Source: Dehalococcoidia bacterium (GTDB lineage: Bacteria > Chloroflexota > Dehalococcoidia > Bin125). Taken from it: DNA of 64,000 nt. How positions within the stretch are numbered: the first letter of the stretch is position 1; every line of letters begins with the position of its first letter. Below, one piece after another: positions 34,020 to 60,311 of this stretch. Position numbers and translations under genes: made by a program. The notes under the pieces are model-generated. The model did no database searches. It saw only the letters and a list, made by a program, of their open reading frames with translations, and had not been told where the DNA came from. The DNA is taken from NCBI GenBank assembly GCA_963662615.2, contig CAXXSR010000001.1, positions 864,001-928,000 on the forward strand. The letters are read 5' to 3'.

Positions 34020-34307
34020 GGTCCAGCGGTGCGGTCGTGGCTGCAGCGGGTTGGCGTGACCACACTCTTCATCGAACCGGGCAGCCCCTGGGAGGACGGC
34101 TATGTCGAGTCCTTCAACGGCAAGCTCCGCGACGAGTGCCGCAACCCCGCAATCTTCACCACGCTCACGGAAGCGCAGATCTTGATCCAGCGCTGGCGCC
34201 GGGAGGTACACCCAGGTGCGCCCCCACAGCGCCCTCGGCTACCGTCCACCCGCCCCCGAAGCGCTGGAGATCGAGCCTCCCTACCCCCACCCCCTGGGTC
34301 GACAGGA
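34020..34307 (+). pseudogene. IS3-family orfB 3' remnant, cut by IS6
   Basis: FIEPGSPWEDGYVESFNGKLRDEC; frameshift before RPHSALGY. Confidence 0.85.
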
Positions 34308-35203
34308 GGTTCTGTCAGATCTCAGGGCACGGGGACGAACCGGGTCAGGCGCTCCCCCTCGCCGCTCGCGTTATGCCGCCTGCATCTCCGCCATCAGTGA
34401 CCGCCAGCGTGTGACGAAGAGCCGGCGCTGCTCGGCCAGGGGGACAGAGTGGCCTCGTCGCTGGCGAGCGCGGAAGCCGTGCCGGCGCTCATCGAACGCG
34501 GTACAGAACCGGGCGGCGGACGCGAAACTCCCGAAGCCCAGCATTGGGTAGCTGCATCGGTGCAGCAGCTTTTTCCCCAGGATCCAGCGGATCGCGCTGC
34601 GGTACGGCGGAGGCTGGTCCGTGGTGACGCGCTGCGGCTTGCGCGCGGTCACCTCGACGAGTCGCCGGAGGAAGCGCCGGGCGGCGTGCGTGTCCCGGTG
34701 CTCGCTGCGCCTGGAGTCGAGGAGCACCCCCTCGCGGTCGAGGGCGCGGTCGCGAGAGCACCAGCGCCCGGCGACGTGCACGTCGGTCTCGTCCAGGGAC
34801 CAGGAGCCGCCGGCGGGGCCGCGCCGCTTCGCGCGCCGCCGGTCCGCGAGCAGCGGGGCGAAGCGGACCTCCCAGGCGCGGATCGTCTCGTGGGTGACCG
34901 CGAAGCCGCGCTGGAGGAGCCGCGCAGCGACGTCGCGGAAGCCCAGCTTGGAGCGGAGACGCCAGAGCACGGCGCGCAGCACGATGTCCGTTGGGTCCTG
35001 GAGATCGGTGAGGGGCGTGCCGGTCCGCTCGTGGAAGCGCCGCCGGCAGGCCTGGCAGCGGAACCGCCGGGAGCCGAGCGCGGTGCGCCCCTTCCGCTTC
35101 GTCGTGGCCGTGGATGTACCGTCTGGACACGCCAGCAGCGTCCCCTCACCATTCCGCGGATGCGGCTCGCCGAGGCCAGCGAGCCCTGCGTTCTGACAGA
35201 ACC
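34308..35203 (-). mobile_element. IS6-family element with degenerate transposase
   Basis: Terminal IRs GGTTCTGTCAGA/TCTGACAGAACC; degraded WxLDET...RAxDRxG motifs; internal deletion. Confidence 0.88.
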
Positions 35204-35368
35204 GAGTTCGCGGGCGTGGTTCTCGATCGCCCAGGTGGCGAACATGTGGTGGAAACGGCCCGTTCACGTCCGTCACCGCCGTCCTCCACCGTCGCGGGAT
35301 ACTCGCCACTCGTTAGTGATGGCGGCGGTACAGTGGTCGATGTCCTAGCAAACGGAAACCGGGTAAAC

Positions 35369-36115
35369 ATGACCGTGATCAGGCCTGTCCTTGCCATTGC
35401 CACGCTTGCCACCCTCCTCGCCGGTTCCCTGTCGTGCAGCGGGGCGCCCGACGCGGTCCGACTGGCGACCGAGGGGGCCTATCCGCCCTACAACTTCCTG
35501 AACGAGGACGGCGAAATCGACGGGCTGGAACGGGAGTTAGGCGATGAGCTGTGCCGGCGGGCCAGTCTCGAGTGCACGTGGGTGACCAACGAATGGGACA
35601 GCACCATCCCCAACCTGGTGGTCGGCGACTACGACGCCGTCCTGACCGGGATGAGCATCACGGACGAGCGGGACGAGCTGATCGACTTCACGCAGCCATA
35701 CCTCCCGCCCAGCCCGTCGGTCTACGTCGCGCTGACCGGTGCCGGCGATGAGGTGGTCACCGGCACGGTGGCCGCCCAGGTGGCCACCGTCCAGGCCGAC
35801 CACCTCTCGGGATCCGGCGCGACGCTGCGGGAGTACACCACGGCGCCGGAAGTCATCGCGGCCATCCTCAGCGGCGAGGCGGATGCGGCGTTGGTCGACG
35901 GCGCGTTCGCCAGCGACAGCATCGCGGAGAGCGGGGGCAGGCTGGCGCTCGTCGGCCCCGAGGTGCCGCTCGACCGCGGTGTGGGCGTGGGCGTCCGGGA
36001 GGGCGATCGGGGGTTGCGGGACACGCTGGACCGGGCGATCGGCGAAATGAAAGAGGATGGCTCGTTGAACGCCCTCATCGAGAACTGGCTGGGCCCCGAC
36101 GCCGAGACCTTCTGA
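35369..36115 (+). CDS. polar amino acid ABC substrate-binding lipoprotein, orphan
   Basis: SLSC lipobox, ATEGAYPPYNF, GMSITDER, DFTQPY. Confidence 0.88.
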   Translation: MTVIRPVLAIATLATLLAGSLSCSGAPDAVRLATEGAYPPYNFLNEDGEIDGLERELGDELCRRASLECTWVTNEWDSTIPNLVVGDYDAVLTGMSITDERDELIDFTQPYLPPSPSVYVALTGAGDEVVTGTVAAQVATVQADHLSGSGATLREYTTAPEVIAAILSGEADAALVDGAFASDSIAESGGRLALVGPEVPLDRGVGVGVREGDRGLRDTLDRAIGEMKEDGSLNALIENWLGPDAETF

Positions 36116-36748: not shown

Positions 36749-37080
36749 CCGTCGGCCTTCCCGTGGTGGCGTACTTCGCCCCCATTCGCACGCGGCGCGC
36801 CGGGAACATACCGGACGGCGCATGGATGGGCCGAACTCGGGGGCGAGGCCGCGCAGCGCCCAGGGCGTGTCGTCGAAGTCGACGGGAGCGGCGAGGGCAC
36901 GGGCCTCGTCCAGCGAACCGGGAGCGATCTGGCCGGCGCGGGCGAGCAGGCGTCGTGTCTGGTCGCCGAAGAACTCGCGCAGGGCGGAATCCTCCGGCTG
37001 CCCGCGCGTCTGGGCCGGCTTCGAGACGCCCGACGCCATCGCGCGCGCGGCGACCGCCAGCTTGCTCGGACCGCCGCGGC

Positions 37081-37239
37081 TCAGCGCGGCTTGGGGAACG
37101 CTCGCCCGGTGGCCGCGTTGGTCACGCGGGTCCCGCGCGCCAACGCCCGCTGGTGCGTTCCGCAGAGGCTTCGGGACGGCGCCGCCGCTGGGCGGGAGCA
37201 TTGCGTGCCCCGGGCGGTCCGCGCTTTGCACTGGGCCAT
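37081..37239 (-). CDS. 52-aa CCCH zinc-finger-like protein (DUF5763-like), copy 1
   Basis: AAGGAGG RBS; MAQCKARTARGTQCSRPAAAPSRSLCGTHQ; below the ORF-track cutoff. Confidence 0.6.
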   Translation of the reverse strand: MAQCKARTARGTQCSRPAAAPSRSLCGTHQRALARGTRVTNAATGRAFPKPR

Positions 37240-37394
37240 TACGTTCCCTCCTTCGCTGCCAATCCGCTACGTCGGCGACAATGATGACAGATCGATAAGG
37301 CGCGGGGGAGCTTGGCATCGACCCAGACGGGCCGTGGGGTCGTCGTGCTCTGCCCGTCACGCGATCCGCGCCTGGCGCCAGACCAACGAAGAGA

Positions 37395-37826
37395 CTAGGG
37401 GCGATCGCGATCGCGGCCTCCACGTTGCTGCCCCGCGACGAAGGTGGCGCCGACGGTGGTGCAGGCGTAGACGACCTGGATCGCAATCGTCCCGGCGATG
37501 GCGAGCAGCAGGGTGAGGGTTGCGACATCGCTGCGCTGCCCGCGCAGCGGACGCCGCGTCAGCGCGCGGGAGATGACGAACAGGGTCGTCAGCATGGCGG
37601 TCCAGCGCAGACCGGTCCCGCCGGGATTGCCGGTGACTTCCATCAGCGCTCCGAGCAGGAAGACGAGGGGGGAGGCGATGATGACGGTTCGCCAGCCAGT
37701 GTCGTCCCACGCGCTGCGGAGCGCGCCGACGGAGTATTGGCTGCGCTGCTGATGACGCGAGATGACTGTTTCCTTTTCGCGCGAGCACGGTTGGTTCGAG
37801 AGCGGCGGCGTGCGCTCAGGTGGCAT
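37395..37826 (-). CDS. membrane protein (WDDT motif), copy 1; start uncertain
   Basis: Three hydrophobic segments; paralogous to the N-terminus of 45265-46045. Confidence 0.5.
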   Translation of the reverse strand: MPPERTPPLSNQPCSREKETVISRHQQRSQYSVGALRSAWDDTGWRTVIIASPLVFLLGALMEVTGNPGGTGLRWTAMLTTLFVISRALTRRPLRGQRSDVATLTLLLAIAGTIAIQVVYACTTVGATFVAGQQRGGRDRDRP

Positions 37827-38185
37827 CGTCACGGTTTCGGTTGAGGCACTTGGCGATCGGTGGCGCGACGATGGCACAGCCGGCGGCGATGCCCGTGGTG
37901 AAGACGATCCAGGGCCAGTAGAGCTCCTGTCCACCCCACGAAGCGGCGCCGACGCCGCTGGCTTCTGCGCCGTATTCGAGCCACCACGTCAGGACGATGA
38001 ACAGCGCGAGCGCTACGTTGAGCGGGCTCGCGATGGGCCCGCTGAAACCTCGGCCGACGACCCAGCGGGCGATCAACGCGAGCACCGTCGCGATCACGCC
38101 CCAGGAGAACGACGGGGCGGGCACGGACGCGTTCGCCGCCCAGCCGACCATCTCGGCGGTGAAGAAGAGGATCGCGAAGAGCAAC
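37816..38185 (-). pseudogene. 5'-truncated duplicate of the membrane protein at 45265-46045
   Basis: Identical C-terminal half; N-terminus lost at the repeat boundary. Confidence 0.75.
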
Positions 38186-38284
38186 TCCATCGGGTTCGTC
38201 AAGAACGCCGTCTTCGGCGGCGGACCGCGTACCCCGAGCCTGGTTCCCGCCGCGGATTGTCAGGGTTTCGAAAGGATTCGGCGC

Positions 38285-38338
38285 TACGCTGAAGCTGGCG
38301 GCAGAGGATCTAGATCCGGCCGCGGGGTGTCGAGAGTA
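38285..38338. promoter_or_regulatory. back-to-back putative ECF-sigma promoters sharing the palindrome GGATCTAGATCC
   Basis: + strand AGATCC-N17-AGTA; - strand AGATCC-N17-CGTA. Confidence 0.45.
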
Positions 38339-38349
38339 GGGGCGTCGGC

Positions 38350-40125
38350 ATGCAGCAACTTCGCGAGTGGTGGCCTGGAGCGGTCGCGGGACTCGTCGCC
38401 GCCGCGGTGGCGCTGGCTGTCGCCGAGTTCGTCGCGCGCCTCGTCGACGGCGAGTCGCTGGTCGTGGCGATCGGAGACGTAATCATCGACAGCTCCCCGC
38501 GTTCCGTCTCCGGCGCGGCGATCGAAACCTTCGGCACGAACGACAAGCCCGCACTGCTCGTTGGCATCGTCGCCACCTCGTTGCTGCTGGGCGCGGCCCT
38601 GGGGCCGCTCGCGATGCGCTACCGCGCGATCGGCGTAGCCGCCTTGGCGGTCTTCGCCCTCGTCGGCGGGCTCGTGGGGGCCCGCGATCCGTTCACCTCG
38701 CCCGCACAGGCCTGGACCACCGCGCTCGCCGCCGGAATCGCGGGGGCCGCGACGCTCCTCTTGCTGCTCAACGCAGCGACCCAGGCCGGCCCGTCGGCCG
38801 CCGCCGCGCCTCCCGATCCGCAGGAGAAGCGCCTCGGGCGAAGGCGCTTCCTGCAGTTCGCCGGCGGCGGGCTGGCGGCGGCAGCGGTCTCGGTGCCCCT
38901 GGGGCGGCGCCTGATCGGCCCGGCGGTCGATGTGGAAGCGCAGCGCGCCGCAATCGTGCTGCCGCCGCCGAGCACCTCGACGCCGGCGTCACGGCCCGCG
39001 GGGGCCGCGACCGCCGCACTGCCCTCGCCAACCCCCAGCGTGAGCGCCCCGCCCAAAGCGACGGCCACAGCCGAGACCGCGCCCGCCCAGGCAACGCCGA
39101 CCGCCACCGCGCCCGCCGAGGCAACGCCGACCGCGACCGTCACGCCCGAACCGACACCCGAGCCGACGCCCGAGCCCGCACCCGTCGTCCGCGCCGGACC
39201 CGCCACGGTGCCGGGCATCTCGCCGCTCGTCACGCCGAATAGCAAGTTCTACCGCATCGATACGGCACTCTCGGTACCACGCATCGACAGTACGCGGTGG
39301 CGGCTCCAGCTCACCGGGATGGTCGACCGCCCAGCGGAGTTCACGTTCGACGAACTCCTCGCAATGAGCCTGCGCGAGGAGTCGGTGACCCTCGCGTGCG
39401 TCTCGAACAGGGTGGGGCAGGGCCTCGTCGGGAACGCCTACTGGCTCGGCGTCCCGCTTCCCACGTTGCTGCGCGAGGCGGGCGTTCAGGCCGGCGCCAC
39501 GCAGGTGATCGGGCGCGCCGTCGATGGTTTCACCGTCGGCTTCCCCACGGACGTCGCGCTCGACGGGCGCGAGTCGATGGTGGTAGTCGGCATGAACGGC
39601 GAGCCGCTGCCAGCCGAGCACGGGTTCCCCGCGCGCCTGATCGTGCCGGGGCTCTACGGCTACGTCTCCGCGACGAAGTGGCTCGGCGAGATCGAGCTGT
39701 CGACGCTCGACTCCTTCGATTCCTACTGGGTGCGGCGAGGCTGGGCCCAGCAGGCGCCGATCAAGCTGCAGTCGCGCATCGACGTCCCGCACGACGGCGC
39801 CACGCTCGCGCCCGGCAACGTGCGTGTCGCCGGCGTCGCCTGGGGCGGGCTGAGCGGCGTCAGCGGCGTTCAGGTTCGGCCAGGCGAGCGATCGCCCGGC
39901 GCGCAGCCTTCGGAAGGCGGATGGATCGACGCCGTTCTGAGCGAGGAGCTGTCCGACAGCAGTTGGCGTCAGTGGGTGGTCGACTGGCCCGCCACCGAGG
40001 GCGCGTTCCGCCTCGAGGTACGCGCGATCGATCGCAGCGGCATGGTGCAGACGGCCGAGCAGATGGAGCCGTTTCCCGATGGCGCCACGGGGCACCACAC
40101 GATTGCCGTGACCGTCGAGGGTTAG
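38350..40125 (+). CDS. membrane-anchored molybdopterin-dependent oxidoreductase (sulfite oxidase/MsrP family)
   Basis: TM N-terminus, RRRFL, P/T-rich linker, FYRIDTA, LACVSN, HGFPARL.VPGLYG, SATKW. Confidence 0.9.
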   Translation: MQQLREWWPGAVAGLVAAAVALAVAEFVARLVDGESLVVAIGDVIIDSSPRSVSGAAIETFGTNDKPALLVGIVATSLLLGAALGPLAMRYRAIGVAALAVFALVGGLVGARDPFTSPAQAWTTALAAGIAGAATLLLLLNAATQAGPSAAAAPPDPQEKRLGRRRFLQFAGGGLAAAAVSVPLGRRLIGPAVDVEAQRAAIVLPPPSTSTPASRPAGAATAALPSPTPSVSAPPKATATAETAPAQATPTATAPAEATPTATVTPEPTPEPTPEPAPVVRAGPATVPGISPLVTPNSKFYRIDTALSVPRIDSTRWRLQLTGMVDRPAEFTFDELLAMSLREESVTLACVSNRVGQGLVGNAYWLGVPLPTLLREAGVQAGATQVIGRAVDGFTVGFPTDVALDGRESMVVVGMNGEPLPAEHGFPARLIVPGLYGYVSATKWLGEIELSTLDSFDSYWVRRGWAQQAPIKLQSRIDVPHDGATLAPGNVRVAGVAWGGLSGVSGVQVRPGERSPGAQPSEGGWIDAVLSEELSDSSWRQWVVDWPATEGAFRLEVRAIDRSGMVQTAEQMEPFPDGATGHHTIAVTVEG

Positions 40126-40336
40126 GGCCGGTAGCGCGCCGGCGCCCAGCGGTCGCAAGGGGAAAAACAGGCAGCTATGGGCAACGATTCGCGAGTGCCG
40201 GGGCTCCATCTTCCTGGCCAGCGCGGTGTCGGCTTTAGATCGAGGGCGGATGACCGCTCTGGACGACGCCCCCCCGCAGGGCGACGAGATCGGCGATTTC
40301 AGCCCGGTGGCCCGGTCTCTTCTTCGTGCGGGGTGT

Positions 40337-40384
40337 TGGAGCGGGAGACGGGGTTCGAACCCGCGACCCTCTGCTTGGGAAGCA
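40337..40384 (-). other. tRNA-Gly(CCC) 3'-half, att-site scar
   Basis: TGCTTCCCAAGCAGAGGGTCGCGGGTTCGAACCCCGTCTCCCGCTCCA; no 5' half. Confidence 0.85.
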
Positions 40385-40830: not shown

Positions 40831-40937
40831 CGAGATTGCGGCTTCCTCGGCTACAGCACTGCCCCAGTGCCTACCACACTCGTACGCTGGGCGCGGGGTG
40901 GCTCGTGAATCGCCACCCGGAGGGCGCGCCGGGCCCT

Positions 40938-44453: not shown

Positions 44454-44529
44454 CGCGTCTGGGCCGGCTTCGAGACGCCCGACGCCATCGCGCGCGCGGC
44501 GACCGCCAGCTTGCTCGGACCGCCGCGGC

Positions 44530-44688
44530 TCAGCGCGGCTTGGGGAACGCTCGCCCGGTGGCCGCGTTGGTCACGCGGGTCCCGCGCGCCAACGCCCGCT
44601 GGTGCGTTCCGCAGAGGCTTCGGGACGGCGCCGCCGCTGGGCGGGAGCATTGCGTGCCCCGGGCGGTCCGCGCTTTGCACTGGGCCAT
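44530..44688 (-). CDS. 52-aa CCCH zinc-finger-like protein, copy 2
   Basis: Identical to 37081-37239. Confidence 0.6.
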   Translation of the reverse strand: MAQCKARTARGTQCSRPAAAPSRSLCGTHQRALARGTRVTNAATGRAFPKPR

Positions 44689-44843
44689 TGCGTTCCCTCC
44701 TTCGCTGCCAATCCGCTACGTCGGCGACAATGATGACAGATCGATAAGGCGCGGGGGAGCTTGGCATCGACCCAGACGGGCCGTGGGGTCGTCGTGCTCT
44801 GCCCGTCACGCGATCCGCGCCTGGCGCCAGACCAACGAAGAGA

Positions 44844-45275
44844 CTAGGGGCGATCGCGATCGCGGCCTCCACGTTGCTGCCCCGCGACGAAGGTGGCGCC
44901 GACGGTGGTGCAGGCGTAGACGACCTGGATCGCAATCGTCCCGGCGATGGCGAGCAGCAGGGTGAGGGTTGCGACATCGCTGCGCTGCCCGCGCAGCGGA
45001 CGCCGCGTCAGCGCGCGGGAGATGACGAACAGGGTCGTCAGCATGGCGGTCCAGCGCAGACCGGTCCCGCCGGGATTGCCGGTGACTTCCATCAGCGCTC
45101 CGAGCAGGAAGACGAGGGGGGAGGCGATGATGACGGTTCGCCAGCCAGTGTCGTCCCACGCGCTGCGGAGCGCGCCGACGGAGTATTGGCTGCGCTGCTG
45201 ATGACGCGAGATGACTGTTTCCTTTTCGCGCGAGCACGGTTGGTTCGAGAGCGGCGGCGTGCGCTCAGGTGGCAT
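44844..45275 (-). CDS. membrane protein (WDDT motif), copy 2
   Basis: Identical to 37395-37826. Confidence 0.5.
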   Translation of the reverse strand: MPPERTPPLSNQPCSREKETVISRHQQRSQYSVGALRSAWDDTGWRTVIIASPLVFLLGALMEVTGNPGGTGLRWTAMLTTLFVISRALTRRPLRGQRSDVATLTLLLAIAGTIAIQVVYACTTVGATFVAGQQRGGRDRDRP

Positions 45276-46134
45276 CGTCACGGTTTCGGTTGAGGCACTT
45301 GGCGATCGGTGGCGCGACGATGGCACAGCCGGCGGCGATGCCCGTGGTGAAGACGATCCAGGGCCAGTAGAGCTCCTGTCCACCCCACGAAGCGGCGCCG
45401 ACGCCGCTGGCTTCTGCGCCGTATTCGAGCCACCACGTCAGGACGATGAACAGCGCGAGCGCTACGTTGAGCGGGCTCGCGATGGGCCCGCTGAAACCTC
45501 GGCCGACGACCCAGCGGGCGATCAACGCGAGCACCGTCGCGATCACGCCCCAGGAGAACGACGGGGCGGGCACGGACGCGTTCGCCGCCCAGCCGACCAT
45601 CTCGGCGGTGAAGAAGAGGATCGCGAAGAGCAACGCCCAGGCGACCAGCGGTCGCCTGGCATAGGGGGCGAGCGCGCGGGCGGCCAGCACGCTGCCCATC
45701 AGCACGAGCGAGAACGGCCAGTAGATGGCGTGTGCGGCGAACGTGTCGCCGATCGAGGTGAACCAGAACAGCGACTCGGCGGACAGGAGGGCGACAAGGC
45801 CGAGTAGCAGGCTGAGGTTTTCGGGATCGTTCAGCTCGCCACGTAAGGGGCGCATGGTCAGGGCTCGCCCGATGGCGAGCAGCGTGACGATCGAGGCGAC
45901 CCAGCCGATGCCAGGCTCGACAGCGACTGCCCAGATCACCAGTTCGAGCAGGAAGATCAGCGCTGCGGTGATGATCGCGGCGCGCCAGGCGGTGTCATCC
46001 CAGACGCGGCGCGCGACACCAAGCGGATCATTGCGCAGTTCCTCATGACGCAGCACGGGATCTCCCTTCGCGTGCGCGGTTCTCGGTCGGGCGGATCGTA
46101 GCCCTTTGGAGACGCAGAGCGCGCTTGCCGTCAC
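45265..46134 (-). CDS. polytopic membrane protein, hypothetical (true start probably near 46056)
   Basis: About 8 hydrophobic segments. Confidence 0.65.
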   Translation of the reverse strand: MTASALCVSKGLRSARPRTAHAKGDPVLRHEELRNDPLGVARRVWDDTAWRAAIITAALIFLLELVIWAVAVEPGIGWVASIVTLLAIGRALTMRPLRGELNDPENLSLLLGLVALLSAESLFWFTSIGDTFAAHAIYWPFSLVLMGSVLAARALAPYARRPLVAWALLFAILFFTAEMVGWAANASVPAPSFSWGVIATVLALIARWVVGRGFSGPIASPLNVALALFIVLTWWLEYGAEASGVGAASWGGQELYWPWIVFTTGIAAGCAIVAPPIAKCLNRNRDDAT

Positions 46135-46489: not shown

Positions 46490-46940
46490 TCCGAAAGCAG
46501 AGGCTGTGCTGCCCGTGCGTGTGCCACCGCCCGACGTCGTTTCGCCGGGCTCAGAAGTTTCCCGAGGCCACCTCACGCAGGATCGAGTTGTCCAGCGCTT
46601 GCTCCGCGACCAGCTGCTTCAGCCGCGCGTTCTCGCGCTCCAGCTCCTTCAGCCGCTTCGCCTGGTCGACCCGCATCCCGCCGTACTCGAGACGCCAGCA
46701 GTAGTAGGTCTGCTCACTCATCCCGAGCTTGCGCACCGCCTGGCCCACCGTATCGCCCTGGGCGAGGTGGACCTCTGCCTCCCGCAGCTTGGCGATGATC
46801 TCCTCAGCTGCGTACCGCTTCCGCTTGCTCGCCCAGACGAGCTGTGGGGAACCGACGCCACACGCGCGTTCATTCACAAGAGGTATACGAGCTGAGAAAG
46901 CAACTGGTCGAACCTGTCTTCGGAATCATCAAGGTATCGA
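46490..46940. mobile_element. nested IS relics: IS3 orfA (-) plus fragments of other transposases (+)
   Basis: EEIIAKLREAE..LKELERENARLK..GNF; RPDELWGTDAT; RKQLVEPVFGIIK (IS1182-like). Confidence 0.75.
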
Positions 46941-47085
46941 TTGTCGTCCTCCGCCGTCTCGGGCTCGATGGTGGAGGCTCCCTCCTTGACGAAGACGCTC
47001 TCTCCGGGAGAGCTGCCAATCCCAAACAAACCGGCGGGTACGTCGGTTGCCAGGTCTACGGAAACTGTGTACGTCGCGTCCGCCG

Positions 47086-47994: not shown

Positions 47995-48189
47995 TTCGTG
48001 TAGCTCCGCCCCATCCTCTGCCGGTGAAGCGGGCGGGGTCGCCCGCCGCGCACCGAGTATAGCCAGGCGCTGCCTCCAGATCGCGCACCGCGGGTATGTG
48101 CTCGACCAGGGCCGCGGCGAGCATCTACGCCGCGCTCGACACGCCGGCCTTCCACGCCTCCGGCCGCGTGTCCGCGGGGCTCTCGATCA

Positions 48190-49061
48190 CCTGATGCTGT
48201 GCGAGCGCCGCCCGCGCGTGACCGAGGTCGATCGTCTGCGCTGGGCGCCCCTCCGCCGTCGCTGGGCGGGCGGGCGCACGTCCCTGGTGATCCTCCATCC
48301 GGACACGGTCGGGCGTTGGCATCGCACCGGCTGGCGCCGGTTCTGGACCTGGAAGAGTCGCCCGCACCGGCCGGGGCGGCGGCGGATCCCGGTCGAGGCG
48401 CGGGATCTGATTCTCCGCCTTGCGCGGGAGAATCCGCGCTGGGGCGCGGTGCGCATCCGGGCCGAGCTGCGGACGCTCGGTTCCGACGTGAGTGCGAAGG
48501 CGGACCTTCCTCCCCAACCAGCGCGGCGTCATCTGGGCGGCGGACTGCTGCCCCGTCCCGACGCGCACGGTCGGGACGGTGTCCGTCTTCTTCATCATCG
48601 CGCATGCGCGGCGCCGCATCGAGGACGTCACCGTCACGGCCCATCCCACGGCGGCCTGGACCTGGCAGCAGATGATCGAGGCCACGGCCTGTAACCATCG
48701 CCCGCGCTCTCTGATCCGAGACCGCGACCGCGCCTACGGGCGCGACTGCGTGGCCCGGGCGCAGCGGCTTGGGAGTGAGACGATCTGGACACCGGTGCGG
48801 GCTCCGCATGCGAATGCCGTGGCCGAGCGCTGGATCGGGACGCTCCGACGCGCGTGCTCGCATCACATCATTCCGCTCAACGCGCGGCACCTGCAGCGGA
48901 TCATCCCAGAGTGCGTCGCCTCTTCCAACGAGACGCGTCCCCATCGGCCCCTCGACCTCCATCCGCCAGCCGGGCCGCGCGCGCCCCAGCGGCACGGGCG
49001 CGTCGTCGCGCCCCCGATGCTGGGAGGCCTCCATCATCGCGACGAACGGGCTGCTGCCTGA
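48190..49061 (+). pseudogene. degenerate DDE integrase-core IS transposase
   Basis: LARENPRWG..RI, IWAAD, LIRDRD, P.ANAVAERWIGTLRR, LGGLHH; frameshifted. Confidence 0.8.
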
Positions 49062-49070
49062 CGATCCGTA

Positions 49071-49277
49071 TTGTGTGGCCCGACAGCCGCTCTGGTGATC
49101 GATCAACTCATCGAAACCGCCGCCGAAGAGAACACGGAATGCATCGTCGTGAATCTCTCCGGTTCCGTCGCCAAGACCCTCCACTCCCTCAATGCTCTCA
49201 AGTGGGTTCCGGAAGAGCATTTCGTGGACACTCTGGACGAGGCGAGGCTGCTCGCCAAGAGCCTGCTCCACGACTGA
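49071..49277 (+). pseudogene. STAS-like C-terminal fragment (SulP type)
   Basis: TAALVIDQLI..IVVNLSGSVAKTL. Confidence 0.4.
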
Positions 49278-49389
49278 GATCACTGCGATCAATGCATGGT
49301 TCGTCGTCCGGCCAACTCGAAATATTCGCACGCGCCTCAGAGACTATTGAGGAAACCCGCCTGCCGGTTCTCAGGATGGGAACGGGGTC

Positions 49390-50283
49390 GTGAGCAGCCA
49401 AACGCAAGCATACCTGTACGCGGGAGGTGCGGTTCTCCTGTGGGCTACCGCCGCGTCGGCGTTCAAGGTGTCGCTGCGCTACGTCGAAGCGCCGCACATG
49501 CTGCTCTACGCGACGATCGTATCGACGCTGGTGCTGCTCGCCGTCGCGGCCTGGCAGCGCAAGCTGGGGCAGGCGCTGATCGGTTCGCCCAAGCAGTATC
49601 TGCGGTCGGCGGCGCTCGGCCTCCTCAACCCGTTCCTCTACTACCTCGTGCTGTTCGAGGCTTACGACCGTCTGCCCGCCCAAGAGGCGCAGTCGCTCAA
49701 CTATGCCTGGCCCATGGTGGTCGTGATCCTCTCGGTGCCGCTGCTCAAGCAGCCCCTGGGCAGGATCTCCCTGGCCGCGATCGCGGTGAGCTTCTGCGGC
49801 GTGCTCGTGATCGCGACGCGCGGCGACCTGCTGGCCTTTCGCGTGAGCGATCCGGTCGGCACGGCCCTGGCGGTCGGCAGCGCCTTCATTTGGGCCACGT
49901 TCTGGCTGACCAATGTCCGGGACGACCGCGATGCCGTCGTCAAGCTGCTGCTGAACTTCGCCTTCGGATTGGTGTTCGTTCTCGCCGCGGCCTACGCCCT
50001 GGCCGGCCCGCCGCCTCTGGACCTGCGCGGCATCGGAGGATCGGCGTACGTCGGCGTCTTCGAGATGGGCCTGACCTTCGTCCTCTGGATGCGCGCCCTC
50101 TCGCTCTCGCGGACGACCGCGCAGGTCAGCAACCTCGTCTACCTATCGCCGTTCCTCTCCCTCGTCTTCATCAGCGTCATCGTCGGAGAGACGATCCGGC
50201 CGTCGTCGGTACTCGGGCTGCTGCTCATTATCGGGGGCATCGTCATCCGCCGCTTCGACCGGACCGCGCCGCGACCGGTCTGA
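49390..50283 (+). CDS. EamA/DMT-family transporter
   Basis: About 10 TM; NPFLYY, LNYAWP, YLSPFLSL. Confidence 0.88.
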   Translation: MSSQTQAYLYAGGAVLLWATAASAFKVSLRYVEAPHMLLYATIVSTLVLLAVAAWQRKLGQALIGSPKQYLRSAALGLLNPFLYYLVLFEAYDRLPAQEAQSLNYAWPMVVVILSVPLLKQPLGRISLAAIAVSFCGVLVIATRGDLLAFRVSDPVGTALAVGSAFIWATFWLTNVRDDRDAVVKLLLNFAFGLVFVLAAAYALAGPPPLDLRGIGGSAYVGVFEMGLTFVLWMRALSLSRTTAQVSNLVYLSPFLSLVFISVIVGETIRPSSVLGLLLIIGGIVIRRFDRTAPRPV

Positions 50284-50357
50284 AGCACCGCTTCTTCCGA
50301 CCCGGCCCAAACCACCTTCATCGGTAGCGCGCCCTCACCAGCGCTCGCCTGGAAGGG

Positions 50358-51487: not shown

Positions 51488-51539
51488 GTTTCAGCGCGGT
51501 GCCATCGCGCACGATCACCACGTCGCGCTCAGGGGCTGC

Positions 51540-51998
51540 GACTGGTCCGCAGCGAGGAAGGATCGCTTCTCGAGTGATCCCGCGAACCTCAACCCGACGG
51601 CGCAATCGTTCAACGCGAGCAAGGGGAGTCGCACGCCGGATCAGTTGACCGGCATCGCGGCCCGGATTCTCGACACGGCGGTGGAGCAGTGCGCCTATGC
51701 GCGTCAGCACCGCGCCGTGAAGCGGGCGTGGGGCCTCACCCTGACCGCTCCGCAGCAGGCCACCAGCACCGCGTGGCTCGCCGGCTGTGGGACGACCAAC
51801 GGAGAAGCGGCATCCGAGCCTGCGCCAATATCGGAGTCCGGCGTCGGTTGCGATCCGTCGTATCCTGATGTGTGCATCCCGCCCTCCCCGCCAGACCTTG
51901 ACTGTGGGGACATCCCGCATCGACGCTTCCGGGTCGTCGGGAACGACCCGCATCGATTCGATGGCCGGGACCAGGACGGCATTGGATGCGAGAGCTAG
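51540..51998 (+). pseudogene. remnant of HNH (DUF1524-like) plus Cys-rich Ca-binding C-terminal domain
   Basis: DPANL..NASKG; CDPSYPDVCIPP..DLDC..DPHRFDGRDQDGIGCE. Confidence 0.6.
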
Positions 51999-54862: not shown

Positions 54863-55815
54863 GGTTCTGTCAGATCGCAGGGCGCCGGCACGAACCGAGC
54901 GAGGCGTTCCCCCCGCGGCGCCCACTCTGCGGCCTGCCTCTCCGCGATCAATGACCGCCAGCGCGCTGCGACGAGCCGTCGCGGCTCGGCCAGCGGGACC
55001 TGCGCACCCCATCGTTGACGGACGCGGCCGTCCGGTCGGCGCTCAGCGAACGCGGAACAGCACCGCACAGCAGACGCGAAGCTCCCGCAGCCGAGCAGCG
55101 GGCGAGAGCGCTGCGTGACGGCCCGCTGGTCCGGCTCGATGCGGGTGGTCACGGAGTGATGGCATCGGTGTCGCCCCTTGCTCCCCAGGATCCAGCGGAT
55201 CGCCCGCCGGTCGGGCGGATGGGCCTCCGTCGTGACGCGTAGCGGCTTACGCTCAGCCACCTCGACGAGTCGTCTCAGGAATCTCCGGGCGGCGTGCCTA
55301 TCGCGGTGCTCGCTGAGCATGGAGTCGAGGAGGTCGCCATCGCGGTCGATGGCGCGGTAGAGAGAGCACCAGCGGCCCGCGACCTTCACGGAGGTCTCAT
55401 CGATGTACCAGGAGACGCCGGCGCAGCCTCGGCGCTTGGTCCGGAGCCGGTCCGCCAAGAGCGGCGCGAGGCGGAACTCCCAAATCCGGATCGTCTCGTC
55501 GGTGACCTCGTAGCCCCGCTCGAGGAGCAGCGCGGCGACGTCGCGGAAGCTGAGCGTGTAACGGAGACGCCAGAGTACGGCGAGCAGGACGATATCCGTC
55601 GGGTACTGGAGATCGTTGAACGGGGTGCCGGTCCGCTCGTTGAAGGTCCTCCGGCAGGCGCGGCACGCGGAGGTGCGGTAGCCGAGTGCGGTGCGCCGCC
55701 GCCGGCGGCTGGTCTCTCCGGAGCCCCAGTGGGGACAGTCCACAAGCCGTCCTCTCCAGGTCGCTGGTGAGCGCGACGCTAACAGAGGACCCGTAGTCTG
55801 AGATCTGACGGAACC
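54863..55815 (-). mobile_element. IS6-family element with degenerate transposase
   Basis: IRs GGTTCTGTCAGATC/GATCTGACGGAACC; WYIDET..YRAIDRDG. Confidence 0.9.
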
Positions 55816-55940
55816 GCGCCGGCGACCTGGTGCGGCGCACGGGGGTGCCGCCGCGGGCGGGGCGCCTCTCCGCCGGCGACGTGGTGGAGATCGAAGCGGA
55901 GGGCATTGGCGTCCTGCGCAACCCGGTCGTGGGGGCCTGA
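55816..55940 (+). pseudogene. fumarylacetoacetate-hydrolase-family C-terminal remnant
   Basis: [24 protein letters not shown]. Confidence 0.65.
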
Positions 55941-56015
55941 TCGCGGGCTGCTCGTCGCCGGGGCGTTCGGTCCCCCTGCGCCGGTTGAGGCGTCCGGCCG
56001 AGGCGCCCCCGACGC

Positions 56016-58217
56016 TCAGGCGCGCGTGCGCCGCACGACGGCCACGCCGGCCAGCGCCACGCTGACCGCGAGGGCCACCGCCAGCGCCAGGAGACCGTGC
56101 CCGCCAGCGAGTCCGCCGCTGCCGGCGCTGCCGCCGCTGCCGGTATTCGGGAGGACTTCGGGGCCGCGGGCGGCAGCATCGCCATCGTCACCGGCGGCAG
56201 CATCGCCATCGCCGCCGCCGGCATCCAGCGCGGCGAGGTCCAGGGCGACTTCGGTGCGGGCGGCGATGACGACGTCGTAGGGCCTGCTGCGGACGGACCC
56301 CGTGATGCTGAAGGTCACGCTGGCGGCGTCCGCCCGGTAGACATAGATGACCCAGTCGCCCGCGGCGACCGCCGTTCTCCCAACCGCTTTCCCATCCTCG
56401 TTCCGGGCGGTGATGACCGTGCCGTCGGGGACGAGCTCGCCGTCGATGGCGGCGCCGGATCCGGCGGCGGCGGACCCGTAGAATTGATGCGGCGGGGCGA
56501 TGGGTACCACGCCGGTGCGCCGCATGATCACGACGCTGCCCGGGGTCAGCGAGGACGCGTCGAGCGTGTTCAGGAACTCCGGCTGGCCGACGCCGTGGCC
56601 GAGGAAGTTCTGCGCGGCGGCATCGAACACCCACACGCTCACGACCGGGAACCGCTGCGCGGCGATCAGCGCCGCCAAGTCGGATGTGCACGCAAGGCCA
56701 TAGGTCCATCCGCCCGGCGGCGGGACCGGCAGCACGGTTGGCGCGTCCCGCTTCGGCTCAACCGCAGCGACCGGCGCCGCCTCGTCCGGCACGCCCCTCG
56801 GCGCGTCGCTCCGCTGCATGATGACGACGCGGCCGGGACTGAGCGAGGAGTCGTCGAGGGTGTTCACGAACTCGGGCGCGCCGACAACGTGGCCTAGGAA
56901 CTCCTGCGTCGGGACGTCGAACACCCACACGCTGGCGACCGGGAACCGCTGCGCGGCGATCAGCGCCGCCAGGTCGGACGTGTCCGAGACGCCGTAGCTC
57001 CATCCGCCCGGCGGGGGAACGGGCAGGACGCTCGACCAGCAGCTGTCGGTGCCTGCCCGCTCGCCTTCGTCCTCCTGGGGAGGGGTCCCGTCGTCGGAGT
57101 CCGGCGGGGGATCGCCGTCGTTGGAGTCCGGCGGCGTGTTTCCCGAGTTGTCCGACTGGGTGTTCCCCGGAGGAGGCGGAGGCGGAGGCGTGTTTCCCGA
57201 GTTGTCCGACTGGGTGTTCCCCGGAGGAGGCGGAGGCGGAGGCGTGTTTCCCGAGTTGTCCGACTGGGTGTTCCCCGGAGGAGGCGGAGGCGGAGGCGTG
57301 TTTCCCGAGTTGTCCGACTGGGTGTTCCCCGGAGGAGGCGGAGGCGGCGGCGTGTTTCCCGAGTTGTCCGACTGGGTGTTCCCCGGAGGAGGCGGAGGCG
57401 GAGGCAGGCTCCCGCCGCAGCTGGCCCGAGTCACGAGCAGGACCGCGTCATTGAAGTCCTCGTCCCCGCCCCCGGAGTAGTCCTCAAAGGAGACGATCGA
57501 GCCCGAGATCCGCGCGTGTATGAGGCCGTCGGGGTTGCGCGATGCGGGCCCCGTCCTGAACACGTCCCCGGTCTCCTGCACGCGGATCCCGAGCACGAGC
57601 TCCCCCGCCGAAAGGCCCCTGAGTACCATCGTCGAGCCGACTTGGCGGTTCGTGATCATGAGATTTATCGCCATGCTCATGTCGCTCATGTCGAAGCGCA
57701 AGAACATGCTCGTGTACGCGGCCTCAAAGGCCAGCACGGTGACGGTGACATCGGTACAGGCGCCCGTCAGCGTGAGGGTGGAACCCGTCGCCGGGTCGCT
57801 GGCGCCCGTCACGATCGGTTCCTGTACGAGCGCGACCTCGCGGGCCCGCCCCGGCCCGCAGCCGGCGTCGTTGCACGCCTGCAGCCGCACCCGCCACAGA
57901 CCATGGTCGGGCACGGCGAGAGTGGCCTCGGTGTCCGTGGCGATCACCGCATCGCCCGGCTGGAAGGCTCCGCCGGGGCGCCGCCAGCTCAGGGAGTAGG
58001 ACGTCGCTCCGGGAACGTCATCCCAGGACACCCCCACCTCCAGCGCGCCGGGCTGGACGCCGATCCCCAATCCGGTGGGCTCGGCCGGGACCCCATCGTC
58101 TGCGCGCCCGTCGCGGCCGGCAGCGGCGGATCCGGGCAGCGCAAGCACGATACTCAGCAGGGCCAGGACACCCACCAGGAACCAGCTGCGAAAAGCTGGT
58201 GTGTCGAAACGAATCAC
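56016..58217 (-). CDS. sortase-anchored surface protein: FN3, DUF4114-like, Pro-rich repeats, duplicated domain, LPNTG
   Basis: Signal peptide; VSWD..ATSY..ACN..GCG; FED..GGDEDFNDAV; LPNTG followed by TM and basic tail. Confidence 0.82.
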   Translation of the reverse strand: MIRFDTPAFRSWFLVGVLALLSIVLALPGSAAAGRDGRADDGVPAEPTGLGIGVQPGALEVGVSWDDVPGATSYSLSWRRPGGAFQPGDAVIATDTEATLAVPDHGLWRVRLQACNDAGCGPGRAREVALVQEPIVTGASDPATGSTLTLTGACTDVTVTVLAFEAAYTSMFLRFDMSDMSMAINLMITNRQVGSTMVLRGLSAGELVLGIRVQETGDVFRTGPASRNPDGLIHARISGSIVSFEDYSGGGDEDFNDAVLLVTRASCGGSLPPPPPPPGNTQSDNSGNTPPPPPPPGNTQSDNSGNTPPPPPPPGNTQSDNSGNTPPPPPPPGNTQSDNSGNTPPPPPPPGNTQSDNSGNTPPDSNDGDPPPDSDDGTPPQEDEGERAGTDSCWSSVLPVPPPGGWSYGVSDTSDLAALIAAQRFPVASVWVFDVPTQEFLGHVVGAPEFVNTLDDSSLSPGRVVIMQRSDAPRGVPDEAAPVAAVEPKRDAPTVLPVPPPGGWTYGLACTSDLAALIAAQRFPVVSVWVFDAAAQNFLGHGVGQPEFLNTLDASSLTPGSVVIMRRTGVVPIAPPHQFYGSAAAGSGAAIDGELVPDGTVITARNEDGKAVGRTAVAAGDWVIYVYRADAASVTFSITGSVRSRPYDVVIAARTEVALDLAALDAGGGDGDAAAGDDGDAAARGPEVLPNTGSGGSAGSGGLAGGHGLLALAVALAVSVALAGVAVVRRTRA
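57133..57402. repeat. 5 x 54-bp coding tandem repeat (PPPPPPPGNTQSDNSGNT)
   Basis: Units start at 57133, 57187, 57241, 57295 and 57349. Confidence 0.95.
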
Positions 58218-58371
58218 AAGGGGACTCCCAGTGTGGCGTGGCCACCGACCTGGGCCGCGCCGCGTCCCTCCTTACTCGATAGGGAGGCGAGAGTCGCGTC
58301 ACCGGCGAAACGCGCGGCGCGCCACTCTATGCGGAACGTCCCTCCGGAGTCAACCGAGCCGCTCCCCCGAT

Positions 58372-59621
58372 TGACCTGCCCCCCCAGAACCGGTCCAGAT
58401 CCTGTGCGAGGATTCGGGGCGGTGCGAAGGGAGTCGGCATGGCACGCAAGCGGTACGCGGCCGAGGAGATCATCGGCAAACTGCGGGAGGCGGAGGGGGT
58501 GCTCGCGCAGGGGGAAGCGGTCGCGCAGGTCGCGCGCCGCCTCGGCGTGGCCGAGCCAACGTATTACCGCTGGCGGCGGGAGTACGGGGGGCTGCGGGTC
58601 GACCAGGCCAAGCGGCTGAAAGAACTGGAGCGCGAGAACAGTCGGCTGAAGCGGTTGGTGGCCGATCAGGCGCTGGACAACGCGATGTTGCGGGACGTCG
58701 CAGCGGGAAACTTCTGAGCCCGGCCCAGCGGCGCCGGGCGACATCCTACCGCACGGACCAGGACGCGGTGTCGGAGCGGCGGGCCGGCCAGGTCACCGGC
58801 CAGGCGCGGGCGACACAGCGCTACGTGCCCCGGCCGTCCCCGGATGCGCCGGCGCTGATCGCGCGGATCATCGCCCTTGCCCGCCGCTTCGGGCGCTACG
58901 GCTCCCGGCGCATCACGGCGCTGCTGCGGGCCGAGGGCTGGCGGGTGAACCACAAGCGGGTGGAGCGGCTCTGGCGGCAGGAAGGGCTGCGGGTGCCCCG
59001 GAAAGCCCCGCGCCGGCGGCGGCTTTGGGCGGCCGATGGATCCTGCACGCGGCGCCGGGCGGAGCGCCCGAACCACGTCTGGTCCTACGACTTCGTCAGC
59101 GAGCGGACCCACGACGGCCGGCCCCTGCGCCTGCTGACCATCGTCGACGAGTACACGCGGGAGTGCCTCAGCATTGACGTGGCCCGGCGCCTGCGGTCCG
59201 ACGACGTCCTCGCCCGGCTGACGGCGCTCTTCGTGCAGCGGGGCCCGCCCACCTACGTCCGCTCCGACAACGGCCCCGAGTTCACGGCGACGGCGGTGCG
59301 TTCCTGGCTGCGTCGCCTCGGCGTGACGACACTCTTCATCGAGCCCGGCAGCCCCTGGGAGAACGGCTATGTGGAATCCTTCAACGGCAAGCTGCGCGAC
59401 GAGTGCCTCAACCCCGAGATCTTCACCACGCTCACGGAAGCGCAGATCCTGGTCGATCGCTGGCGCCGGGAGTACAACCAAGTCCGGCCTCACAGCGCCC
59501 TCGGCTACCGCCCCCCCGCCCCAGAGACCCTGGAGGTCGGACCTCCCCACCCCACCCCTTTGGCAGACCGGATGGTTCTGGCACTAACTTAAGCCCTGGT
59601 ACAACAATCGGGGGCAGGTCA
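58372..59621 (+). mobile_element. IS3-family element, near intact
   Basis: IRs TGACCTGCCCCC/GGGGGCAGGTCA; orfA 58439-58717 with GGGAAAC shift site; orfB to 59592 with DDE motifs. Confidence 0.93.
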
Positions 59622-60311
59622 CCCGGATGAGCCGGCGCTGATCGCGCGCATCGTCGCCCTCGCCACGCGCTTCGGCCGCTCCGGCTCCCGCCACATCACG
59701 GCCCTGCTGCGCGCGGAGGGCTGAGGACCGACCGGCTCGCTGGTCCGGCGGCGGGCCGAGCGCCCCCACCACGTCTGGTCCTACGACGTCGTCTTCGACC
59801 GCACCGCCGCTGGGCGCCCGGTGCGGATCCTCGCCCTCGTGGATGAGTACACGCGCGCGTGCCTGAGTCTCGACGTGGCCCGCCGGCTGCGTAGCGACGC
59901 TGTCCTGGCGCGGCTGGCCCAGCTCTTCGTCGAGCGTGGGCCGCCGGCGTACCTGCGGTCCGACAACGGCCCGGAGTTCACGGCCACGGCGGTGCGCGAC
60001 TGGCGGACGCGGGTCGGCGTGACCACCCGCTTCATCGAGCCCGGCAGTCCCTGGGAGAACGGCTCTGTGGAATCTTTCCACGGCACGCTGCGCGACGAGT
60101 GCCGCACCCCCGAGATCTTCACGACCCGCACCGAAGCCCAGGTCCTCATCGCCCGCTGGCGGCGCGAGTACCACCCAATCCGGCCCCACCGTGCGCTCGG
60201 CTCCCGGCCACCCGCCCCGGAAACGCAGGCGATCCGATCTCCCCCCTCCGGGCAGCCTCGGAGCGTCCCAACCCTCACTTAACCACTGGTACAACGATCG
60301 GGGGCAGGTCA
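59622..60311 (+). pseudogene. second, degenerate IS3 orfB with right IR
   Basis: Homologous to 58850-59621; internal deletion and stop; ends GGGGCAGGTCA. Confidence 0.9.

Follow-up and report, generated by a model that had tools for sequence, protein, structure and literature searches.

A:T>C:G substitutions concentrated on insertion-sequence copies in a high-GC sponge-associated bacterium

Fungal RIP acts on every copy of a duplication and leaves C:G>T:A transitions within a dinucleotide context. In diversity-generating retroelements (DGRs), the variable repeat differs from its template by changes of adenines on one strand only, which can become any base. Textbooks treat the A:T>C:G transversion as the signature of a single defect, a failure to sanitise 8-oxo-dGTP; the chemistry of MutT loss is followed here as described in PMC13212565. 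Mutation-accumulation lines of Mycobacterium smegmatis gave 111 A:T>C:G events versus 209 transitions at A:T pairs, spread genome-wide, with 45% of the A:T>C:G events in GACC/CACC motifs (PMC4938668). Among the papers listed by full-text literature searches, none concerned IS-restricted A:T>C:G decay in bacteria.

The DNA analyzed here, called the window, is a stretch of 64,000 nucleotides from a high-GC sponge-associated bacterium (G000), and the main comparison genome (G009) belongs to a different genus. Transposase copies of three families (IS3, IS6 and rve/IS481-like) in G000, together with their close relatives in G009, carry substitutions that are 45-90% A:T>C:G. The spectra were obtained by counting alignment columns with private or outgroup-polarised differences. 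The coordinates and element identities of the initial annotation were right, as seen with the Pfam models HTH_Tnp_1, HTH_21/rve/rve_3, DDE_Tnp_IS240 and rve_3. The window contains the following IS-derived features:

34026-34343, plus strand: 3' fragment of an IS3-type orfB, called frag (two tblastn pieces, 82% and 70% identical to copy A)
34374-35312, minus strand: IS6-type transposase relic R1 (Pfam DDE_Tnp_IS240; alignment to intact G009 copies)
46554-46925, minus strand: IS3-type orfA, frame open and normal-looking (tblastn 76% to the orfA of copy A), within a segment 94% shared with G009
48186-49086, plus strand: dead rve_3 (IS481-like) transposase relic in two frames, called rve48 (Pfam rve_3, tblastn)
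54928-55823, minus strand: IS6-type transposase relic R2, assigned by similarity alone (tblastn 62% to R1)
58372-59621, plus strand: full-length IS3 copy A, with orfA at 58439-58717 and orfB at 58768-59592 (alignments; Pfam HTH_Tnp_1 and HTH_21/rve/rve_3)
59622-60317, plus strand: IS3 copy B, its 5' end cut off by the insertion of copy A, with an internal deletion (Pfam rve/rve_3)

The decay of these copies had been described as almost only A:T>C:G. This is true of one IS3 subfamily, the G2-type, where A:T>C:G accounts for 62 of 82 polarised changes and A:T>G:C for 3 (12 unpolarisable columns excluded), but it does not extend to the others, as the dead IS3 and IS6 copies pooled show 88/181, with 15 A:T>G:C and 29 G:C>A:T. 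The changes occur on both strands, A>C and T>G being equally common. The sequence context of the events, which the initial annotation had suggested checking, revealed no motif in the pooled IS3 and IS6 copies, GACC/CACC being judged from single-position frequencies only; no methylation-type motif was found around them. The GC skew of G000 is noisy, and replichores are not assignable from it.

We tentatively favor, at somewhat less than an even chance, the explanation that this decay is tied to the IS copies' own history and represents a MutT-type (8-oxo-dGTP) footprint, acquired via mutator passage or mobile-DNA synthesis. The simplest reading would be a host-wide A:T>C:G pressure, resulting from weak 8-oxo-dGTP sanitation in the whole bacterial family and unmasked when a gene dies; the A/T sites surviving elsewhere would be held by selection, and dead genes in compact genomes are mostly IS. 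That the pattern occurs in two genera and across three IS families speaks for such a pressure, which we nevertheless regard as possible but doubtful.

The G2-type family is the strongest case and lies mostly outside the 64,000-nucleotide window. Its frameshifted copies are common to G000 and G009 at ~95% identity in the identity matrix, versus only ~75-80% for the housekeeping DNA of the two genomes, a difference which shows that IS copies move between genera. Three G000-G009 pairs have A↔C/T↔G in 50/56, 55/62 and 40/46 of their substitutions, and the polarised changes are balanced between the strands (A>C 32, T>G 30). When sorted by branch, A:T>C:G accounts for 48/53 of the outgroup-polarised shared changes versus 14/29 of the private ones (p = 7e-5). 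This heterogeneity within one IS family argues against host-wide pressure and suggests that the footprint follows the elements' history rather than their present chromosomal place. A truncated and immobile copy, X, has 4/11. Change sharing among the G009 copies is nested but partly incongruent, which requires recurrent mutation, recombination or several imports and counts against the history-based explanation.

Copies A, B, G1, G2 and X represent the IS3 family, with its orfA HTH and orfB rve (DDE) core in Pfam and its terminal inverted repeats, the ends in the alignment being TGACCTGCCCCC...GGGGGCAGGTCA. Copy A, which sits inserted in copy B, is chimeric: its 5' portion is G2-like, with zero private changes, and its 3' portion is identical to the G1 copies. 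Copy B had been read as a degenerate counterpart of copy A, altered by A>C and T>G. Such changes are present (19 A>C, 7 T>G), but 48 C↔G and 23 transitions are also found among the 108 differences, and the two copies are separate subfamilies, ~80% identical, rather than an element and its own decayed copy. The private changes of copy B (n=45) were polarised against the other subfamilies, with frag as an additional outgroup and 113 ambiguous columns excluded; they comprise 20 A:T>C:G, 12 G:C>C:G, 8 G:C>A:T, 4 A:T>G:C and 1 G:C>T:A. At codon position 2, the proportion rises to 14/18, and copy B is strand-skewed (A>C vs T>G ~16 vs 4). The own private changes of frag are A:T>C:G in 2/14 cases. The open orfA at 46554-46925 is without the footprint, its 6 differences from G009 being 4 transitions, 1 A↔C/T↔G and 1 A↔T. 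Five active G1 copies are identical, with at most one substitution in ~1250 bp and zero A:T>C:G.

These alignments also bear on two trivial sources of the pattern, an artefact (from assembly, alignment or polarisation) and GC-biased gene conversion between copies, which we consider highly improbable. Repeats are difficult to assemble, singletons may include errors, and gene conversion favors G/C alleles in some bacteria. However, derived states are common to several copies and to two independently assembled genomes, the G1 repeats lack such differences, and no GGC-type error context is seen. Copy B is, moreover, a unique sequence with ~3% of its sites changed A:T>C:G. Gene conversion should favor A>G as much as A>C, in contrast to the 62:3 ratio of the G2-type family.

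The IS6 family features a single DDE_Tnp_IS240 transposase (R1) and conserved short inverted-repeat ends in the alignment (GGTTCTGTCAGATCTCAG). Four dead copies, two in the window and two in G009, were scored at 478 sites with the same base in three intact lineages. The A:T>C:G pattern claimed for the window copies is present in these four (56/119 overall and 35/49 at codon position 2, with 26 A>C and 30 T>G) but again falls short of almost only. R1, in which a 54-nt internal deletion takes out the EQDHR stretch, has 8/20 A:T>C:G among its private changes and 6/11 among those common to it and the G009 copy L015; R2 has 16/32 private. A↔C/T↔G makes up 24/46 of the differences between R1 and L015 and 7/12 of those between the 5' 305 bp of R2 and G009. 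At 4-fold sites of the intact IS6 lineages, A↔C/T↔G is not in excess (36 vs 48 transitions).

For rve48, the pattern seen in the initial annotation stands at codon position 2, where 17/46 changes are A:T>C:G vs 1/12, 1/10 and 2/8 in three better-preserved paralogues, though not as almost the only change. Of the 52 substitutions separating it from its G009 counterpart, 39 belong to the A↔C/T↔G class, with 18 in one direction and 21 in the other. The IS3 copies have partners within G000; R1 and R2 match at 62%, and the best partner of rve48 there has 58% amino-acid identity (tblastn). Two other relic fragments, r215 and r84, are without enrichment (3:4 and 1:5 over all three codon positions), a further point against host-wide pressure. 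The tyrosine-recombinase fragments are short 3' pieces only.

Non-IS controls covered shared genes, third codon positions, spacers, one non-coding stretch, housekeeping genes and paralogue 4-fold sites. The island DNA next to the IS copies is shared with G009, and its differences, which are unpolarised, were sorted into transitions, A↔C/T↔G, C↔G and A↔T:

38261-40384, plus strand: molybdopterin oxidoreductase gene and spacers (Pfam Oxidored_molyb; 97% shared with G009); gene 7 transitions, 3 A↔C/T↔G, 2 C↔G; spacers 8, 4 and 1, plus 1 A↔T
46926-47860, minus strand: part of a Cache-domain gene and spacer (Pfam sCache_2; 94% shared); gene 14 transitions, 10 A↔C/T↔G, 15 C↔G, 4 A↔T
49348-50350, plus strand: EamA transporter gene (Pfam EamA; 98% shared); 13 transitions, 5 A↔C/T↔G, 4 C↔G, 1 A↔T
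51499-51810, no strand: stretch without clear reading frame, adjoining an IS6 copy in G009 (94% shared); 8 transitions, 6 A↔C/T↔G, 4 C↔G
55816-58371, minus strand: gene for a rapidly evolving surface protein that contains a proline-rich tandem repeat (92% shared); 99 substitutions, with 36 transitions, 35 A↔C/T↔G, 21 C↔G, 7 A↔T

Across the four cargo genes, A↔C/T↔G contributes 53/177 substitutions (18/76 when only third positions are counted); the spacers give 7/24 and the 51.5 kb stretch 6/18, the non-coding controls being small (24 and 18 substitutions) and of transfer dates that may differ from those of the IS copies. Overall, this amounts to ~30% in non-IS island DNA vs 75-89% in the G2-type pairs and rve48 (Fisher tests against spacers, p = 4e-9 for G2 and 5e-5 for rve48). 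Counted per A/T-bearing site, A↔C/T↔G reaches 50/367 (G2) and 39/258 (rve48) vs 12/409 in spacers (p about 1e-8), where A/T sites may be under partial constraint. The non-IS shared DNA thus has ~5x fewer such changes per A/T-bearing site, with transitions equal to or higher than in the IS copies, and this goes against host-wide pressure, as do the cargo third positions (32 transitions vs 18 A↔C/T↔G, p = 0.01). A share of ~38% A↔C/T↔G among the cargo-gene non-synonymous differences counts in its favor. Since the adjacent DNA is without the same decay, the process appears to follow the mobile elements. Non-IS neighbors had been noted as much less affected; this is correct for the co-transferred genes and spacers, but the relics named, at 40.6 and 60.7 kb, are respectively too short and too little diverged for a spectrum comparison.

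Beyond the island, a genome-wide MutT-type bias driving the high GC, one of the two readings offered by the initial annotation, is not well supported; the housekeeping, 4-fold, spacer and third-position spectra differ from those of the IS copies, and genome-wide drift fits poorly. Lineage-specific changes in housekeeping genes at codon position 2 are 38 A:T>C:G vs 49 A:T>G:C. The 4-fold sites of 14 non-IS paralogue pairs show 119 transitions and 66 A↔C/T↔G, where the dead-IS rates under stationarity predict ~45% transitions (p = 4e-7). The rpoB region is less GC-rich in G000 (0.696) than in four relatives (0.717-0.735), and among the strain-level differences listed (Logan contigs at 90% likeness, many from other organisms), one of six clean ones, a number too low for a spectrum, is A>C; both observations argue against host-wide pressure. 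In its favor, the dead-copy rates of copy B and IS6 lead to an equilibrium GC of ~0.81-0.87, near the third-position GC of genes (0.78-0.92). The private changes of the immobile relics X, R1 and R2 are also moderately enriched (34/63 vs 13/42 in spacers, p = 0.03), which likely implies some host-wide bias in addition.

In genus g9 (three related genomes), A/T occurs at 11/1920 ancestral 4-fold sites, too few to compare A:T>C:G with A:T>G:C; its non-coding-like sites give 16 vs 21, under a mask that probably still includes coding DNA. A candidate non-IS pseudogene from a noisy self-tblastn proved to be a real gene with an alignable leader (ORF set 1.86 of 2.66 Mb). G000 carries eight Nudix genes, none above the MutT model cut-off. 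This cut-off of the equivalog model is passed in 0/151 genomes of the class, in agreement with host-wide pressure, and in just 3/14 control genomes, so that the model is uninformative about MutT. MutS and Fpg genes are present in G000.

The other reading offered is a process confined to DNA that is mobile or repeated. The confinement has statistical support; RIP-like silencing triggered by homology is not supported. A dedicated defense of this kind, in which a host system finds IS or repeated DNA in place and mutagenizes A:T pairs until the element is dead, would be in agreement with a load confined to IS-derived DNA, absent from adjoining spacers and genes, and with the several unrelated transposase families affected. 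However, the five identical G1 copies would be its best targets and are untouched, rve48 is without a close partner, and the intact-looking IS3 orfA in shared DNA is spared (1/6). The majority of changes fall on shared branches and are thus older than the present insertions. No Argonaute (Piwi) gene was found in G000, whose genome is 93.6% complete, and we know of no enzyme that makes A>C directly. Such a defense is therefore quite improbable. A mutational process aimed at mobile DNA in the broader sense, either a strongly mutagenic transposition limiting IS spread or an undescribed host system riddling IS copies, seems unlikely.

Under the history-based explanation that we favor, 8-oxo-dGTP would most likely be inserted opposite template A and later fixed as C:G. 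The route ranked most likely, although doubtful when taken singly, is that the copies were unselected passengers in putative MutT-type mutator backgrounds, provided either by mutator sublineages or by a different member of the community whose spectrum is of this kind. Mobilizable copies would have left by horizontal transfer, while the remainder of the mutator genomes stayed behind. A second and distinctly less likely route is that errors stem from synthesis unique to mobile DNA, outside replisome-coupled mismatch repair. It could be copy-out or replicative transposition, or repair synthesis in which one of G000's two Y-family polymerases is at work. This second route predicts errors in each new copy, against which stand the five G1 copies without A:T>C:G (P = 0.002 given the G2-type private load) and the intact IS6 lineages without a 4-fold excess. 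Dead copies retain the changes because their frames are unselected, and these frames stay open because A:T>C:G rarely yields stop codons (only from rare codons, such as TAT and TTA).

If the concentration on IS copies is true, a stay in a mutator host may leave its record in mobile elements, and gene flow in symbiont communities would gain a new tracer. Alternatively, the copying or the control of IS elements may be mutagenic in these bacteria, and the many dead copies with open frames would then be explained. The finding also bears on the origin of very high GC, as a GC-raising type of mutation is seen acting, though not genome-wide.

In comparison with known systems, the IS copies resemble DGRs in that mutations are directed at adenines within a defined segment. 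Unlike in DGRs, T>G equals A>C (30 vs 32; 30 vs 26), so the changes are not limited to one strand, and whole transposase genes are affected. Fungal RIP likewise concentrates decay on mobile or repeated DNA and leaves riddled dead copies beside normal genes; here, transversions at A:T replace C:G>T:A in a fixed context (G:C>A:T 29/181), identical active copies are spared rather than all being hit, and rve48 decayed without a close partner. Raised A:T>C:G is shared with the mutation-accumulation lines of the high-GC bacteria M. smegmatis and Deinococcus radiodurans, whose spontaneous spectra lean from AT towards GC. Compared with M. smegmatis, the IS copies differ in a 6:1 to 20:1 ratio in favor of A:T>C:G, without motif and restricted to IS. 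A mutT mutator has its whole genome marked, whereas the load here is on the IS copies; the shared spacers beside them have ~5x less of it per A/T site, and it is not seen genome-wide in modest, unpolarised samples. Within the IS copies, A:T>C:G is dominant and lies on both strands, and the G2-type family (62/82) is like the MutT-deficient mutators of E. coli, with their near-exclusive A:T>C:G on both strands and little context.

The changes accumulated by decayed IS copies in this Dehalococcoidia genome (G000) have a MutT-type signature, the type in which oxidised dGTP is inserted opposite A. This signature tracks the IS lineages rather than the surrounding chromosome. The genome measures 2.66 Mb in two contigs (C1 and C2), with a GC of 68% and a marker-gene completeness of 93.6%, and is the sole one of its genus among those compared. 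The window corresponds to C1:864001-928000. The end of C1 (C1:2001306-2007983) is identical to the start of C2 (C2:1-6678) across 6678 bases, and the two contigs, of which C2 carries rpoB, probably form one chromosome. The copies concerned are, in window coordinates unless C1 is given:

34026-34343, short IS3 fragment
34374-35312, R1, IS6-type relic (Pfam DDE_Tnp_IS240)
48.2-49.1 kb, rve48, transposase relic (Pfam rve_3)
54928-55823, R2, second IS6 relic
58372-59621, copy A, IS3-type (Pfam HTH_Tnp_1 in orfA; HTH_21, rve and rve_3 in orfB)
59622-60317, copy B, truncated second IS3 orfB (Pfam)
C1:930198-931451, 935747-937000, 1649956-1650793 and 1191564-1192401, IS3 copies with a 1-nt insertion in orfB at codon 128/129

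Across the genome, the IS3 copies comprise five near-identical G1 copies, four G2 copies with the orfB insertion in common, a truncated copy X, the chimeric copy A, copy B and one short fragment. The five G1 copies are active and differ from each other by at most one substitution. Copy A has a G2-like 5' part and a 3' part identical to G1. The insertions are nested, with copy A lying within copy B and G1 within G2 at two other loci. This G1-in-G2 nest (C1:1649956-1652027 and C1:1191564-1193636) has the same junction and different flanks at both sites, and therefore seems to have transposed as one unit; the two pairs differ by three changes, every one of them in the dead G2 part. The codon 128/129 frameshift is also found in at least 12 copies (L149, L151, L153 and others) of G009, a related genome of a different genus, where two copies of the family (L132, L135) give a single unbroken match. 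The frameshifted IS3 is either a non-autonomous element that still spreads, or its frameshift is read through.

Copies A and B, on which the initial annotation had partly based its claim that decayed copies carry almost only A:T>C:G changes, come from separate subfamilies and share ~80% identity. Since their 108 differences comprise 48 C<->G, 26 A>C or T>G (from A to B), 8 in the reverse direction and 23 transitions, the claim is untrue of the raw pair, in which old divergence at third positions accounts for the C<->G differences and for many of the transitions. It does describe the G2-type family treated below. When private changes of copy B are counted at sites with the same base in the G1 and G2 groups (113 ambiguous columns excluded), 20 of 45 are A:T>C:G, followed by 12 G:C>C:G, 8 G:C>A:T, 4 A:T>G:C and 1 G:C>T:A; at second codon positions the share is 14/18.

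The IS6 copies were polarised at 478 sites where three intact G009 lineages agree. Four dead copies (R1, R2, and L015 and L029a of G009) carry 119 changes: 56 A:T>C:G (26 A>C, 30 T>G), 25 G:C>C:G, 22 G:C>A:T, 11 A:T>G:C and 5 G:C>T:A, with A:T>C:G reaching 35/49 at second positions. Pooling IS3 and IS6 gives 88/181 A:T>C:G and 15 A:T>G:C, and the flanking bases of these events show no enrichment except that T is slightly over-represented at -1. In rve48, A:T>C:G is the biggest class at second positions (17/46), compared with 1/12, 1/10 and 2/8 in three better-preserved paralogues. In a further relic, r2001, the share is 10/21, and the fragments r215 and r84 show no excess.

The strongest spectrum is that of the G2-type IS3 family. 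Many copies with the same frameshift occur in G009, ~95% identical to those of G000; because this far exceeds the identity of housekeeping DNA, the element has moved between genera. Eleven copies were compared, with three more distant ones as polarising outgroup; columns were dropped if they held fewer than 7 sequences or adjoined a gap, and 12 were unpolarisable. A:T>C:G accounts for 62 of the 82 changes (32 A>C, 30 T>G), A:T>G:C for 3. The share is 48/53 among shared, outgroup-polarised changes and 14/29 among private ones (p = 7e-5). Unpolarised A<->C/T<->G differences make up 50/56, 55/62 and 40/46 of the differences in pairs between the two genomes.

Several controls show no genome-wide spectrum of this kind, at least not visibly. 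In ten genes around rpoB, second-position changes private to G000 against four relatives include 38 A:T>C:G and 49 A:T>G:C of 255, and the GC of the region is 0.696, below the 0.717-0.735 of the relatives, which speaks against the proposed genome-wide bias driving high GC. Near rpoB, the genomes of genus g9 (L006-L013) have 11 A or T among 1920 inferred ancestral bases at 4-fold sites, and C<->G exceeds all other changes there (207/234); their third-position GC is extreme for genomes of ~73% GC. At 4-fold sites, 14 non-IS paralogue pairs of G000 (39 rows minus 15 IS3 and 10 tyrosine-recombinase rows; non-IS status judged from reading 8 of the proteins) have 119 transitions, 66 A<->C/T<->G, 175 C<->G and 9 A<->T. 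These silent sites are transition-rich, unlike the IS relics. The tyrosine-recombinase family has five full copies, besides many short fragments whose similarity is confined to the 3' end of the gene (C1:62548-62745, 97490-97725, 112296-112606, 148052-148206 and others); site-specific integration may have left them behind. In comparisons among themselves, intact IS6 lineages have 36 A<->C/T<->G and 48 transitions at 4-fold sites, and at positions 1 and 2 transitions are again the more numerous.

The best control is provided by pieces of the island at ~38-58 kb that are present in both G000 and G009 at 92-98% identity, compared with ~75-87% for housekeeping DNA across the bacterial family, as between G000 and its nearest genera. 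The island is a mosaic, in which pieces of 38261-58371 recur in G009 (L154, L158, L162, L165, L166) in a different order, suggesting that genes have passed between genera recently. A duplicate of 1184 bp, 99.8% identical (37005-38188 and 44454-45637), includes the end of a membrane-protein gene. The control pieces are the molybdopterin oxidoreductase, EamA, Cache-domain and surface-protein genes, their spacers and a 312-bp non-coding stretch. The surface-protein gene (56016-58217, minus strand), the fastest-evolving among the genes in common, encodes PPPPPPPGNTQSDNSGNT repeated five times in tandem, along with two internal domain repeats. Between the two genomes, A<->C/T<->G differences account for 53/177 in genes, 18/76 at third positions, 7/24 in spacers and 6/18 in the non-coding stretch, compared with 39/52 in rve48; non-IS neighbours are less affected, as the initial annotation had suspected of nearby non-IS relics.

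Per A/T-bearing site, these differences number 50/367 in G2, 39/258 in rve48 and 12/409 in the non-coding controls, where they are ~5x fewer than in the IS relics, although A/T sites of the spacers are possibly constrained in part. Transitions per site are 1/1248, 8/823 and 22/1267, respectively, and the controls are therefore no younger by the transition clock. Both results weigh against a host-wide pressure unmasked in dead DNA, which we consider rather unlikely, even though the immobile relics X, R1 and R2 are moderately enriched in private A:T>C:G changes (34/63 vs 13/42 in non-coding controls; p = 0.03, computed with 28 other changes where the correct count is 29). Because of this enrichment, of the ~38% A<->C/T<->G among non-synonymous differences of two fast-evolving cargo genes, and of a predicted equilibrium GC from dead-copy rates that lies near third-position GC, a baseline lean to A:T>C:G is likely in this bacterial family. 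Such a lean leaves unexplained both the 75-90% in G2-type copies and rve48 and the difference, inside a single family, between shared and private changes.

Tentatively, and at somewhat less than an even chance, the footprint is linked to the elements' own past. IS copies would have resided in mutator backgrounds and then escaped by horizontal transfer, a route favoured because it agrees with three observations: young G1 copies are identical, intact IS have ordinary silent sites, and the excess falls on shared branches. Error-prone synthesis linked to transposition would also be a matter of element history, but is contradicted by the G1 copies (P = 0.002).

MutS and Fpg are present in G000, the window MutS (13101-16088) having its best named relatives in Chloroflexi SAR202 and Dehalococcoidia genomes at only 43-46% identity. 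The only good MutY-like gene (C1:1561560-1562407, minus strand) is split across two frames, lacks the C-terminal Nudix-like domain and may represent a pseudogene or reflect an indel in the assembly. MutY loss leads to more G:C>T:A, a class that is rare in the dead IS copies. None of the eight Nudix genes reaches a MutT-model cut-off; the model cannot decide MutT status, as it is also below cut-off in 151/151 sampled genomes of the class and 11/14 control genomes. Two Y-family polymerase genes were identified, and no Piwi-domain gene was found in this 93.6% complete genome. Runs with window DNA include sponge and seawater metagenomes (small shares), as well as coded organisms at 0.89-0.96.

Judged from its search results, a full-text literature search returned no IS-restricted A:T>C:G decay in bacteria. 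In the portions of PMC4938668 on its AT-to-GC-leaning spectrum, M. smegmatis has more A:T>G:C (209) than A:T>C:G (111), unlike the IS copies here, and 45% of its A:T>C:G events fall in GACC/CACC. Diversity-generating retroelements (DGRs) are also unlike this decay, which hits both strands. RIP differs from it in mutation type and context, and identical copies are spared here; a RIP-like targeted system is very unlikely, and an artefact or gene conversion scarcely credible. The mutT mutator is alike in spectrum, but unlike in distribution over the genome.
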